This document shows positions 23,906-27,022 of a DNA stretch of 64,000 nt, piece by piece. The DNA lies in NCBI GenBank assembly GCA_017303675.1, contig JAFLBX010000002.1:1300411-1364410 (forward strand), read 5' to 3'. The position numbers and the translations under genes were made by a program. Each line of letters starts with the position of its first letter. Position 1 is the stretch's first letter. Source of the DNA: Ignavibacteria bacterium (GTDB lineage: Bacteria; Bacteroidota; Ignavibacteria; Tepidaquicellales; OLB5). Below the pieces are notes generated by a model, which was given only the letters and a program-made list of their open reading frames with translations, was not told where the DNA came from and searched no databases.

Positions 23906-24795
23906 GCAAAGGCTGCAAAACACTTCCATTAAAGAAAAATTTCCTCGCAATTGAAAAAGAGTATTCAAACTATAAAAATTCAAAGGTTGTAATACTTTCT
24001 GCACCATATGAAAAAACCACGTCATACGGTAAAGGGACTGCAAAGGGTCCCGGCGCTATTTTAGAAGCTTCGCATTATGTTGAATTTTTTGATGAAGAGA
24101 CCGAAAAGCAGGTATGCTTTGATATCGGGATTGCCGCAATAGAACCAATGAAATTCGGAAAGCTAACAGGCAAAAAAGCCCTGGATCTTATCTACCGGAA
24201 TGTTGATGAGAATATCAGGAACGGAAAGTTTGTTATAACACTTGGCGGAGAGCACTCAATTAGCACTGCGCCAATAAAGGCGCATTATGATAATTACAGT
24301 GATCTTTCCATCCTGCATTTAGATGCGCATTCAGACCTGCGCGAAGAGTATGAGGGGTCTAAATATTCTCATGCATCATTTGCAGCCAGAGTTTCTGAGT
24401 TTACTACAGATATAACACAGGTAGGGATCCGTGCGCAGTGCAAAGAGGAGTTCGATTTTATTAAAGCAAAAGGTATAAATACCTTTTATGCCTTTCAAAT
24501 GCGCGACCGGGGTTTTGATGAAAAGCTTATCAATGATATAACCGGCACATTAAAGAAGAATGTTTATATTACTTTTGATGTGGATTATTTTGATCCATCA
24601 ATCATGCCTTCAACAGGTACACCCGAGCCGAATGGCTTTTATTGGGATGAAACAATGAGGCTGCTGAAGAAGGTTTGCGCTGAAAGAAACCTGGTTGGAT
24701 TTGATGTTGTTGAGCTTGCGCCGCAGAAAGATTATACTTTCCCTGACTTCTTAACAGCAAAGCTGATTTATAAGATATTGAATTATAAGTTTTAG
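23902..24795 (+). CDS. speB: Agmatinase (ureohydrolase family)
   Basis: LGGEHS, LDAHSD, TFDVDYFDPS, PSTGTPEP; ATGA overlap with dnaX stop. Confidence 0.85.
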   Translation: MSKGCKTLPLKKNFLAIEKEYSNYKNSKVVILSAPYEKTTSYGKGTAKGPGAILEASHYVEFFDEETEKQVCFDIGIAAIEPMKFGKLTGKKALDLIYRNVDENIRNGKFVITLGGEHSISTAPIKAHYDNYSDLSILHLDAHSDLREEYEGSKYSHASFAARVSEFTTDITQVGIRAQCKEEFDFIKAKGINTFYAFQMRDRGFDEKLINDITGTLKKNVYITFDVDYFDPSIMPSTGTPEPNGFYWDETMRLLKKVCAERNLVGFDVVELAPQKDYTFPDFLTAKLIYKILNYKF

Positions 24796-24817
24796 AAAGT
24801 TCTTTCTTGAGCTAAAT

Positions 24818-24850
24818 GCAGAGACGGCGCGGTAGGTCGTCTTTTTTTTT
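24818..24850 (+). terminator. GTAGAGACG-type palindrome acting as probable speB terminator
   Basis: GCAG-AGACGGC-GCGGTAG-GTCGTCT followed by a long T run. Confidence 0.55.
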
Positions 24851-24856
24851 GAAAAA

Positions 24857-24978
24857 TTTTGCGAGGAGAATTTGTACTGCAAATTCGGTGTGGTAATCTT
24901 TTTATAGTAAAGATAGGTTAATTTGTATTGGTAAATTGTCGTCTAGATTCTTCGCTCGCTTCGCTCACTCAGAATGAC
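24857..24978. repeat. Third bipartite palindromic unit
   Basis: Left arm 24861-24899, right arm GTCTAGATTCTTCGCTCGCTTCGCTCACTCAGAATGAC at 24941-24978. Confidence 0.8.
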
Positions 24979-25028
24979 AGAGATATTCCCGATTCAATCG
25001 GGATTGGTTTGAGTCGCTATTTTGGCAT

Positions 25029-25133
25029 AAAAAAAGGCAGGCACAAGTGCCTGCCTGAAAACTAGCCATCCCAATTATTCTAAAAATTCTTTGGGCTGCT
25101 AAACGAAGCTTTTGCGTAGTTTAGCGGAGAGGG
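25029..25133. repeat. Direct repeat copy 1 (tRNA 3' end + hairpin + terminator)
   Basis: About 6 mismatches over ~103 bp versus 25509-25611. Confidence 0.9.
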
Positions 25134-25193
25134 TTGACTGCGCTAAAGCTTCGTCAACCGGGGAGTTAATGAATTTCTTTATTTGAAATTTTA

Positions 25194-25472
25194 TCAGATT
25201 AAATCATTAGCATTGGGTTTCAATACAGGTTTCTGTAAAATCCTTTTAAACAATACGGCTTTTCCTGAACCTGTCTTGAAATATCTTTCTAGGTTTCTCG
25301 CCTGACTTTCAGTTTTTACTCCAATAAACGCCTCAAACTCGAAAGGTTTATAATGTTTCGTTGATTGAGCTAATCCTTCATTATGTTCCAGCAATCTTCT
25401 CTTTAAATTGTTGGTTGAACCAATATATCGAAAATTTGAATTTATACTCTTCAATATGTATACGTACCACAT
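25194..25472 (-). CDS. Small standalone GIY-YIG nuclease
   Basis: YVYIL...YIGST, RRLLEHN (Arg), LERYFK (Glu); 92 aa. Confidence 0.85.
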   Translation of the reverse strand: MWYVYILKSINSNFRYIGSTNNLKRRLLEHNEGLAQSTKHYKPFEFEAFIGVKTESQARNLERYFKTGSGKAVLFKRILQKPVLKPNANDLI

Positions 25473-25508
25473 AATTATTGGATTAATATTTTTTATATGT
25501 TTTAAAAT

Positions 25509-25611
25509 AAAAAGGCAGGCACAAGTGCCTGCCTAAAAACTAGCCATACCAATTATTCAAAAAATTGTTTGGCCTGCTAAACGAAGCTTTAGCGTAGTTT
25601 AGCGGAGAGGG
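25509..25611. repeat. Direct repeat copy 2, overlapping the tRNA-Ser 3' end
   Basis: AAAAAGGCAGGCACAAGTGCCTGCCT...GCTAAACGAAGCTTTAGCGTAGTTTAGCGGAGAGGG. Confidence 0.9.
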
Positions 25612-25692
25612 AGGGATTCGAACCCTCGATAGAGGTTAACCCCCTATGACGGTTTAGCAAACCGTTGGTTTGAGCCACTCACCCACCTCTCC
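25603..25692 (-). tRNA. tRNA-Ser(GCT), CCA not encoded
   Basis: GGAGAGG/CCTCTCC acceptor, ACGGT-TTGCTAA-ACCGT anticodon arm, long variable arm, GGTTCGAATCC. Confidence 0.95.
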
Positions 25693-25762
25693 GGCGTGAA
25701 AATCAGCTCAATAGAAAGCAAATTTACAAATTTTATTGATTTTAATAAAGGGTAAGATTTTT

Positions 25763-27022
25763 CTACTTTTTGAAATCTACATACATATGTTCAAAATTCA
25801 GCACCATTTCGCTGAATTCCCCCATATAATCCTGCCCGAGATTGCCGTAAAAGGATTTATCATGATCCTTTATACGTTCTGAAACAAGTTTTACATCATC
25901 CAGTTTGAGCCTTGAAGTACCGATCCGGAAAATAAGGTCATTCAATACAAATCCTTTAACTTTAATTGTACCGCCGGCACCGCCAAATTCAATTTCTTCA
26001 GGTTCATACTTTTTATCTATGACACTTTTATTAAGCCTGTAATATGAAGAATATAAAAGAGTGGTTTTTGCACCTGTATCAAACGTAAATGCAAGTGAAT
26101 CGTTATTATTAATAACTTCTATCACCGGGATAAATCCATCTATCAGTAAATTAGAATTTATTGCCGGGTTTCTTTTAGCAGGGATAAAAATCTCACTTTT
26201 TCTTATATGCAGCTCTTTCATTTCCTGGATCACCGGTAACCCGATTATACCGTTAATTACATACAAACCCCCGGCAAAAGAAAGCGACTCATCAGGCATA
26301 ACAAGGAATAATACATTGCTTATCTTTATATTACCAATTTCAAGCAATTCTGCATAAGCTAACCTTGATGTAATCTTCTTTCCGGTAACAGAACCAACTT
26401 CGAACCCCCCGCCGATCATAACCATTTTCAGTTTTTTAGCGTAACTTTCACTAACTACTGAAAAATTAGCACCTGTATCAAAAATAAAATCTTCGGTATG
26501 ACCGTTACACTTTACGGGAATATTTATTAATCCCGCGAGATCTTTTTTAATGTTAATTTTTGAGTCACCTGAAATTTCAGCAATCTGCGCGCCAAGATCC
26601 CCCGCTGCTTTCCAGATAATCAAAGAATTTTTTATATCATCCATTTCGGATGAATCTATCAATGATGAATAATTCTGAATGATATATTCTGAACAAAATG
26701 CTGCGTCTTTATAATCATATAGATGCACAGAATTTTTCATTCTTGTTTCATATAGCAGCATTTTTAAGGAATCATGGATTTCAGCAGCATGTAAAGTAAG
26801 AAGATCGTTTATCAGTAAATTAGACTCCGCATTTTTGCTCTGCAGGTTAAATACAAGTGAGTTTATAAACTTATTTTGCCATTCACTAAGCTCAGTTTTT
26901 TCAGAATATTTTACAAGACGGAAAAAATCTTTATTTTCGTTCAGAATAAGCAGATCATTAAAGCCTGTTTGAGAGCAGATATTTGTTGCAACGAGGGTCA
27001 TAACGAGGAACAGAGTTTTCAT
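25763..27022 (-). CDS. Secreted double-domain retropepsin-like aspartyl protease
   Basis: Signal peptide; two DTG motifs (FIFDTGAN, FTFDTGAK); GIIG and GNLG flap-type motifs. Confidence 0.8.
   Translation of the reverse strand: MKTLFLVMTLVATNICSQTGFNDLLILNENKDFFRLVKYSEKTELSEWQNKFINSLVFNLQSKNAESNLLINDLLTLHAAEIHDSLKMLLYETRMKNSVHLYDYKDAAFCSEYIIQNYSSLIDSSEMDDIKNSLIIWKAAGDLGAQIAEISGDSKINIKKDLAGLINIPVKCNGHTEDFIFDTGANFSVVSESYAKKLKMVMIGGGFEVGSVTGKKITSRLAYAELLEIGNIKISNVLFLVMPDESLSFAGGLYVINGIIGLPVIQEMKELHIRKSEIFIPAKRNPAINSNLLIDGFIPVIEVINNNDSLAFTFDTGAKTTLLYSSYYRLNKSVIDKKYEPEEIEFGGAGGTIKVKGFVLNDLIFRIGTSRLKLDDVKLVSERIKDHDKSFYGNLGQDYMGEFSEMVLNFEHMYVDFKK

Follow-up and report, generated by a model that had tools for sequence, protein, structure and literature searches.

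The locus studied here raises a simple question: what are the three look-alike hairpins that surround a small GIY-YIG nuclease gene beside a serine tRNA gene in the genome of an Ignavibacteria bacterium (assembly GCA_017303675.1)? The window, i.e., the whole 64,000-nt stretch of DNA analyzed, covers positions 1,300,411 to 1,364,410 of contig JAFLBX010000002.1, and an initial annotation of it had suggested that the hairpins are sites recognized by a protein in single-stranded DNA (ssDNA) or RNA, possibly the end signal of a cassette or a pre-tRNA processing signal. We found that the hairpins are the conserved, oppositely oriented ends of a tRNA-attached nuclease cassette, and that hundreds of related bacterial loci have this design. 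The comparative sequence data strongly support a structured, protein-recognized site that marks the cassette ends. With a probability of roughly 0.6, the hairpins serve as recognition sites in ssDNA and as the end structures of a GIY-YIG cassette at tRNA ends, one that is mobile now or was so in the past; we infer the ssDNA recognition, the cleavage, and the mobility.

Anatomy of the cassette and structure of its hairpins

The cassette is about 480 bp long, contains one gene, which encodes a 92-residue GIY-YIG nuclease, and is located at the 3′ end of tRNA-Ser(GCT). Read along the minus strand, the tRNA gene (25603–25692) is followed by hairpin 1 (25576–25603), a 41-nt spacer, an intrinsic terminator (25513–25534), the nuclease open reading frame (ORF; 25194–25472), hairpin 2 (25132–25159, with its motif on the plus strand), a copy of the tRNA end (25125–25133), hairpin 3 (25098–25125), a second copy of the spacer, a second copy of the terminator (25035–25056), and a partial tRNA-Ser remnant (24985–25018).

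All three hairpins, with the stems and the loop consensus first described for them, were recovered at their positions: the pattern TRCGCWAAAGCTTC matches three times in the window against 0.08 expected, and the match at 25139–25152 is on the strand opposite to the other two. Hairpin 1 (type A, tRNA-proximal) reads GCTAAAC-TAC-GCTAAAGC-TTC-GTTTAGC, followed by (C)AGGC, scores 52.6 bits with the covariance model, and has its motif on the tRNA/ORF strand. Its first stem base is the tRNA discriminator, the G at 25603, as had been claimed. Hairpin 2 (type B, at the distal end) reads GGTTGAC-TGC-GCTAAAGC-TTC-GTCAACC, with the motif on the strand opposite to the ORF. Together, hairpins 1 and 2 form an 18-nt inverted repeat of 94% identity (25137–25154 and 25581–25598), so that the earlier description of the gene as flanked by an inverted pair was correct, and the same arrangement is found across related loci. 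Because the motif is on the tRNA/ORF strand proximally and on the other strand distally, the unit is a cassette with hairpin-forming terminal inverted repeats. The duplicate of the tRNA 3′ end, CCCTCTCCG, is 9 nt long, lies on the minus strand, abuts hairpin 2, and resembles a target-site duplication.

The annotation had missed a 116-nt direct repeat on the minus strand (proximal copy 25496–25611, distal copy 25018–25133). Its two copies are 90% identical at a spacing of 478 nt, and each consists of the tRNA 3′ end, a hairpin, the spacer, and the terminator. Hairpin 3, the second type A hairpin, is a copy of hairpin 1 within this repeat and differs from it by one loop substitution (T to A); the three hairpins are therefore present, but the window holds just two independent ones. 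The CTCYCC motif said to precede every hairpin fared in a similar way. At hairpins 1 and 3, it is CTCTCC, which is the tRNA acceptor strand and its duplicate, and the CTCCCC at hairpin 2 is not conserved in the two relatives that share the cassette, G002 and G014 (the source genome is G000 in our labels, and other G and L labels denote related genomes and related loci).

Between the hairpins (25160–25575), the single-domain GIY-YIG gene is the sole ORF with a Pfam match (PF01541, E = 9.4e-18). Two other ORFs of at least 40 aa, of 40 and 42 aa, are on the opposite strand, overlap the GIY-YIG gene or the repeat, and were left out of the Pfam search. No recombinase or integrase is present inside the 478-bp unit, which has no room for one and in which the only ORF matching a family is the GIY-YIG gene. 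The nuclease ORF ends 34 nt before hairpin 2. The tRNA gene, identified by ARAGORN and with 59.6 bits to the Rfam tRNA family, has no encoded CCA and is, according to ARAGORN, the only gene for the GCT anticodon in the genome. An Rfam 15 scan of 24700–25800 with E up to 10 gave the tRNA as its sole credible match, which alone was above the gathering threshold, and no family for the hairpin. The tRNA-Ser remnant, also on the minus strand, consists of a D-loop-like AGCGACTCAAACCAA and then a hairpin, TCCCGATTGAATCGGGA, where the anticodon stem would be.

The 7-bp stem of the hairpins held up, but the open 14-nt loop did not. This "loop" is an imperfect palindrome, and with DNA parameters the hairpin folds into a 7-bp stem, a 3 × 3 internal loop, a 2-bp inner stem, and a tetraloop (−5.7 kcal/mol); what had appeared as a loop is really a conserved TAC/TTC internal loop closed by a small, covarying inner stem. 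Across the relatives, the constant core is ..AC-TAC-G...C-TTC-GT.., in which the 3 × 3 internal loop (5′-TAC / 5′-TTC) lies between two helices and is flanked by AC..GT and G..C pairs. The outer stems vary freely among loci (GCTAAAC, GCGATAC, GCCAAAC, GCTCAAC, CCTCAC, GGCTGAC, GACCGAC, and others), and the center of the hairpin is variable as well: GCTAAAGC or GCCAAGGC at one extreme, and an inner hairpin of as much as about 40 nt at the other.

The covariance check proposed with the annotation was made on 64 distinct compact hairpins from related loci, and it came out in favor of paired stems. In this set, 98.3% of the cells are paired, a percentage inflated by the choice of outer stems of at least 6 bp for the alignment, and both sides have changed in 9 of the 10 pairs. 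The score for covariation, 0.667, compares with 0.214 in shuffles, none of 500 of which reached it, and with at most 0.09 when the register was slid. A third inner pair, outside the selection criterion, still covaries (UA 46, CG 17, other 1).

Related loci in other bacteria and in the same genus

Of 401 genomes that sample the phylum, 32 have homologs (E ≤ 1e-14), and a tRNA lies on the gene's own strand within 1.5 kb in 26 of the 29 new loci from this sample (23 upstream and 3 just downstream). A profile scan with one genome per species yielded 537 loci, and the counts of upstream tRNAs and of hairpin position and orientation given in the next paragraph were drawn from the best 80 of them. 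These 80 loci belong to Ignavibacteria, Melioribacter, Chitinophagaceae, Cyclobacteriaceae, Cytophagales, Balneolaceae, Chlorobiaceae, Neomarinimicrobiota, Omnitrophota, and one Peribacteria genome, and those from Balneolaceae include the isolates Fodinibius salsisoli and F. halophilus. A tblastn search against the PLSDB plasmids gave no match.

A same-strand tRNA is located within 600 nt upstream in 64 of the 80 loci, in 63 cases a tRNA-Ser, with all four isoacceptors found, and in one a tRNA-Arg. A type A hairpin is positioned exactly at the tRNA 3′ end in 48 of these 64 tRNA-bearing loci, and in 52 of the 80 a type B (reverse-complement) hairpin is found no more than about 140 nt from the ORF stop. 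The orientation is equally consistent. Upstream of the gene, coding-strand motifs were counted in 59 loci and opposite-strand motifs in 2. At the ORF end, the preference is reversed, with opposite-strand motifs in 39 loci and coding-strand motifs in 2. The background is one match across the 109 kb of flanking DNA situated beyond 700 nt.

A copy of the tRNA 3′ end (about 9–21 nt) usually begins within about 2 nt of the end of the distal hairpin, and because these last 9–21 nt of the tRNA are copied after the hairpin, the tRNA stays intact. This direct repeat has a median length of 13 nt and is at least 10 nt long in 29 of 45 related loci. The three-hairpin layout of the window, in which the type B hairpin and the repeat are followed by a second type A hairpin, is also present in 14–19 of 49 related loci, and tandem cassette arrays occur in L056, L064, L066, and L074. 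The duplication in the window reaches 116 nt because it includes the second type A hairpin, the spacer, and the terminator, and it is probably a decayed second cassette copy or the product of an unequal exchange.

Two further arrangements were seen among the related loci. In six loci of Cyclobacteriaceae and Cytophagales (L096, L099, L102, L107, L112, and L120), the cassette takes up exactly the space that separates tRNA-Ser from the following tRNA gene; the end of its distal hairpin coincides with the first bases of that following tRNA, and the tRNA-Ser end is not duplicated. The ORF, moreover, usually runs into the distal hairpin and stops inside it, at the TAG of a conserved CGTAG, so that the end of the element and the end of the gene overlap. 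Its tail (..KKRILTDEA.. or ..RILTDEA..) is the translated 5′ arm (L049, L052, L060–L063, L137, and others).

We searched the locus against the whole source genome and 60 relatives. Among these relatives, the cassette is common only to G002 and G014, with approximately 75% DNA identity, and the tRNA was reported in all of them. In both genomes, hairpin 2 keeps its GTTGAC/GTCAAC stem, and the stem of hairpins 1 and 3 is GCGATAC/GTATCGC instead of GCTAAAC/GTTTAGC, which amounts to two compensatory double changes around an unchanged loop. The G014 cassette has a different gene neighborhood. The nuclease gene is missing at tRNA-Ser(GCT) in 18 of 20 same-genus genomes; 17 of these have a plain trailer and terminator at the tRNA, and the remaining one, G008, gave no match in the locus search. 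G010, which after G002 is closest to the source genome at the flanking genes, is without the cassette, and in G003 a degenerate solo hairpin remains, located behind a partial copy of the tRNA. Since most congeners have a tRNA-Ser(GCT) gene without the hairpin, the suggestion of a pre-tRNA processing signal is disfavored.

Many congeners have one to three tandem partial tRNA-Ser copies downstream of tRNA-Ser(GCT) (loci L030–L043), which indicates that this tRNA gene is a hot spot; the window retains only the 5′ remnant. The partial copies begin in the D-loop (GGCTCAAACCAATCC), and a foreign hairpin (e.g., TCCCGAGTACTCGGGA) takes the place of the anticodon stem. Extra small hairpins expand the T-loop, and each copy has its own trailer and terminator.

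The nuclease, its paralogs, and hairpins away from the cassette

The catalytic residues of the cassette nuclease are intact, with Y5, Y16, R26, H30, and E62 invariant in the alignment of the family. PF01541 covers residues 1–69 of 92, and the AF2 model (pLDDT 91) consists of one GIY-YIG domain and a disordered tail, with low confidence for residues 80–92. The best Foldseek match is the Slx1 nuclease domain (7cq3_A; TM 0.66, rmsd 1.1, 33% identity), with UPF0213 also matched, and the UPF0213 protein BH0048 is a sequence match (E = 2.3e-8). The model is thus of a bare GIY-YIG domain similar to that of Slx1, an enzyme that cuts branched and stem-loop DNA. Despite this likeness to Slx1 and UPF0213 (URI-domain) proteins, which are its best structural and profile matches, Slx1 differs in needing Slx4 and in having a RING domain, and UPF0213 proteins are without known cognate repeats. 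No NCBIfam family was above its cut-off for the nuclease (TIGR01453 gave 25.9 bits against a cut-off of 56). We found no solved Ssn structure, and the best PDB matches in sequence and fold are UPF0213 and Slx1.

The closest published system is that of the Ssn ssDNA nucleases with their SRM hairpin repeats. SsnA of Neisseria meningitidis is a 94-aa GIY-YIG protein that binds and cuts beside its own hairpin repeat, in ssDNA only and on one strand only, and does not act on double-stranded DNA (dsDNA) or RNA (Chenal et al., Nat Commun 2025; PMC11893778). Ssn genes (CDD cd10448) are typically flanked by their own hairpin repeats (NTS/SRM), and the authors remarked on the insertion sequence (IS)-like layout NTS-ssnA-NTS (PMC11893778). 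The window's cassette resembles Ssn/SRM loci in its single-domain GIY-YIG protein of about 90–100 aa (here 92), in the presence of its own hairpin repeat on both sides of the gene, and in having further genomic copies of that repeat. It is unlike them in the design of the hairpin (outer stem, TAC/TTC internal loop, inner stem), in the strict inversion and low copy number (about 10) of the hairpins, and in being locked to tRNA 3′ ends with a duplication of the tRNA end. The word tRNA does not occur in the Ssn paper (PMC11893778), and our full-text literature searches turned up no description of tRNA-end GIY-YIG hairpin cassettes.

The source genome has 12 Pfam GIY-YIG matches. Six small GIY-YIG paralogs with 41–59% mutual identity each have their own flanking hairpin repeat family, which suggests one nuclease per repeat family in this genome. 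Three tRNA-attached GIY-YIG genes (Ser, Pro, and Met), among them the cassette nuclease, share 33–44% identity. One paralog occupies an Ssn-type locus (C2:193048–193660), where a 120-aa GIY-YIG gene has the canonical SRM TGTCATACCCGCGAATGCGGGTATCCAG on both sides; the published SRM pattern, which TGTCATACCCGCGAATGCGGGTATCCAG fits, has 30 matches in the source genome against 4 in a reversed-sequence control, with 28 other sites besides this locus. Five more small paralogs (C2:1092293, C2:449079, C2:965929, C1:2049103, and C1:477097) each have a different flanking hairpin repeat family, one of which is a 118-nt bipartite unit. At C1:328451–329000, a GIY-YIG ORF comes 3 nt after tRNA-Pro(CGG). 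Behind it lie a partial copy of tRNA-Pro, with TCCCGACACTACGTGTCGGGA in place of the anticodon arm, and then a truncated second copy of the nuclease. At C2:725536–726000, a GIY-YIG gene comes after tRNA-Met, and beyond this gene is a remnant of the T-arm that the hairpin CCGCCGCGGCGG interrupts. The tRNA-Pro and tRNA-Met cassettes are designs different from that of the tRNA-Ser cassette.

Copies of the cassette hairpin were also found elsewhere in the source genome. A scan for the compact form with stems of at least 6 bp gave 10 matches against 2 in the control. A relaxed scan (inner segment of 4–62 nt, outer stem of at least 5 bp) was uninformative genome-wide, with 60 matches against 77 in the reversed control, so the specific scans are those of the compact form or restricted in position. 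The covariance model identified nine hairpins: three at the tRNA-Ser locus, an inverted pair in a 379-aa ORF, one of a second in-ORF pair, the partner of which is too degenerate for the model, and three orphans. Both pairs are gene-less and about 100 nt long (type A, a spacer of about 50 nt, type B) and are translated in frame (C1:1717615–1717718 in the 379-aa ORF and C1:129440–129527 in a 747-aa ORF). The pair in the 379-aa ORF is missing from the G002 ortholog and from a paralog in the source genome. We considered it as a clean insertion compared with an empty site and rejected this, as the hypervariable linker holds other repeats in other genomes.

Covariance-model matches among relatives do not extend beyond the taxonomic family of the window. 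Orphans are found in either orientation. Most of those in relatives share one stem family, CCTGCC or ACTGCC, an example being (G)CCTGCC-TGCGCCRAGGCTTC-GGCAGG(C)-CAGGC, and the orphan loci L168–L186, which are in G002, G004, G007, G015, G020–G022, G025–G027, and G029, behave like a dispersed repeat of the repetitive extragenic palindrome (REP) type.

What the hairpins may do at tRNA ends

The anatomy of the cassette, the covariation and orientation of its hairpins, its linkage to tRNA genes, its presence and absence among relatives, and the intact catalytic residues are direct observations, and the initial idea of a protein-recognized end signal is borne out by them in one part: the motif at both ends in dozens of independent loci, the covarying stems, and the presence/absence pattern strongly support a structured site at the cassette ends, while recognition by a protein is our inference. 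The hairpins might fold when the DNA is single-stranded, during replication, transcription, or uptake. The cassette's own nuclease would then bind the folded hairpins and nick nearby, as Ssn nucleases do with SRM hairpins, and such nicks, together with host repair or replication, may have copied the cassette into tRNA 3′ ends. The same nicking may have scattered the orphan hairpins and the gene-less hairpin pairs elsewhere. It is also possible, and we propose this tentatively, that the cassette moves autonomously, as an element of about 330–480 bp without a recombinase or transposase, whose sole protein, the GIY-YIG nuclease of 80–92 residues, would recognize its own folded ssDNA hairpin ends, and whose paired nicks would let host replication or repair copy the element into tRNA 3′ ends, rebuilding the tRNA.

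Several findings weigh against a mobile cassette with ssDNA-recognized ends. Hairpin stability is ordinary (z −1.1 to −2.3) and not significant alone, and the selection of outer stems described above favors pairing. The published SRM pattern HGTCWYN(0-2)YYVSBRHN(0-5)WNVSBRGN(0-2)RNCYNB has 0 matches in the window and in 0 of the 80 related loci. The cassette nuclease is only distantly related to the SRM-flanked paralog (27% identity, E = 7e-4); with this paralog as a stand-in for the SsnA/cd10448 clade, it groups in what is probably a different clade, with the tRNA-Pro- and tRNA-Met-linked paralogs. The length of the direct repeat varies from 4 to 116 nt, and in L050/L126 the terminator is duplicated rather than the tRNA end, so that a single model with a fixed staggered cut fails to explain the repeats. 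In relatives, 18 of the 19 top orphan matches are more than 1 kb from any tRNA or GIY-YIG gene. Looked at from the hairpin, the association thus fails outside the cassette, and the motif alone is not a reliable marker of GIY-YIG genes or tRNAs. Most orphan hairpins, furthermore, are of one stem family (CTGCC/GGCAG), and the copies in the source genome and G002 are syntenic, which is compatible with vertical descent.

Some of these same findings suit a domesticated, immobile Ssn-like system, in which the hairpins would be ssDNA recognition sites rather than transposon ends, with a host role such as modulating recombination, transformation, or repair, and the tRNA would simply offer a safe, well-transcribed site. 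Domestication and an effect on transformation were proposed for Neisseria (Chenal et al., Nat Commun 2025; PMC11893778), the syntenic copies in the source genome and G002, 75% identical and with compensatory stem changes, look like long vertical residence under selection, and the dispersed hairpins are mostly orphans of the one stem family. We nevertheless regard this explanation as unlikely, as it leaves several things unexplained: the tRNA 3′ end that is precisely duplicated behind the distal hairpin, the tandem arrays, the use of many tRNA-Ser isoacceptors in addition to Met and Arg tRNAs, and the patchy presence in one genus, with a different gene neighborhood in G014.

A role at the RNA level appears less probable still. 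Hairpin 1 would be a 3′-trailer element of tRNA-Ser, acting in processing, insulation, or as an aid to termination, and hairpin 2 a 3′-untranslated region stabilizer or processing site of the nuclease mRNA. It is consistent with this that hairpin 1 starts at the discriminator of a tRNA without an encoded CCA and is transcribed with the tRNA, that the distal hairpin adjoins the 5′ end of the next tRNA gene in the six related loci, and that the ORF stop codon is usually inside the distal hairpin. Yet the distal hairpin reads as the reverse complement of its proximal counterpart, such that a single transcript would show a GAA/GUA loop there instead of UAC/UUC, whereas it is the same DNA motif that is conserved. 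In addition, tRNA-Ser(GCT) works without the hairpin in most congeners, no Rfam family matches, and GIY-YIG enzymes are DNases, with SsnA inactive on RNA. We favor ssDNA over RNA because the distal motif is on the non-coding strand, orphans occur in both orientations, hairpin pairs lie inside ORFs, and the Ssn nucleases, the sole characterized analogs, cut ssDNA only.

The tandem partial tRNA-Ser arrays of congeners, with repeated trailers and terminators at this locus, and the duplicate nature of hairpins 1 and 3 are what passive tandem duplication, unequal crossing-over, or leftovers of integrase islands at a tRNA hot spot would give, with the nuclease gene as a passenger, but this is very improbable, given that no integrase is present within the 478-bp unit and that the motif is found again, in the same orientation and with different stems, at independent tRNAs of distant families, which is beyond passive duplication.

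Other known elements share single features with the proposed mobile cassette. As in REP/BIME (bacterial interspersed mosaic element) systems with a REP-associated tyrosine transposase (RAYT) and in IS200/IS605, a small gene lies between inverted hairpin repeats with dispersed orphans, and the ends of those elements are recognized as folded ssDNA hairpins. Their enzyme, however, is an HUH (Y1) transposase, no gene for which is among the Pfam matches between the hairpins here, where the enzyme is a GIY-YIG protein; IS200/IS605 hairpins are, moreover, on one strand, with neither target duplication nor tRNA-end targeting. The GIY-YIG homing endonucleases of T-even phages (SegB in a tRNA gene cluster; PMC2330249) are likewise encoded among tRNA genes and are thought to spread by cutting near their own position. 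Unlike the bare 92-aa domain of the cassette protein, Seg proteins are of about 200 aa or more, have a DNA-binding domain, cut dsDNA, and lack hairpin ends and tRNA-end duplication. With its terminal inverted repeats (18 nt, 94%) and target-site-like duplication (9 nt; median 13 nt in relatives), the cassette has the hallmarks of a terminal inverted repeat transposon or miniature inverted-repeat transposable element (MITE), although the repeat length varies widely and there is no known transposase. The gene-less hairpin pairs in frame in two ORFs also recall MITEs and Rickettsia palindromic elements, which rely on DDE transposases or move by unknown means, whereas the autonomous partner here would be the GIY-YIG gene. 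We also considered a remnant of an integrase att site and rejected it, as there is no recombinase and the motif recurs across phyla.

If the cassette is indeed autonomous, few self-contained mobile DNAs would be smaller, and it would represent a new mechanistic class related to, and distinct from, Ssn/SRM. If the inference of ssDNA recognition and mobility holds, the Ssn principle of a bare GIY-YIG domain reading a folded ssDNA hairpin would hold for a second clade of proteins as well, one whose hairpins follow another grammar, in which a conserved internal loop lies between two free stems, and which has a defined genomic target, the tRNA 3′ end. In this respect, the cassette provides a concrete candidate, open to testing, for a mini-element without a transposase, one with a wide distribution in Bacteroidota, Ignavibacteria, and neighboring phyla. 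Its enzyme-hairpin pairs may also yield new ssDNA nucleases specific for sequence and structure. For genome annotation in these bacteria, the hairpins and tRNA-end duplicates account for odd tRNA trailers, pseudo-tRNA fragments, and the tails of short "hypothetical" ORFs.

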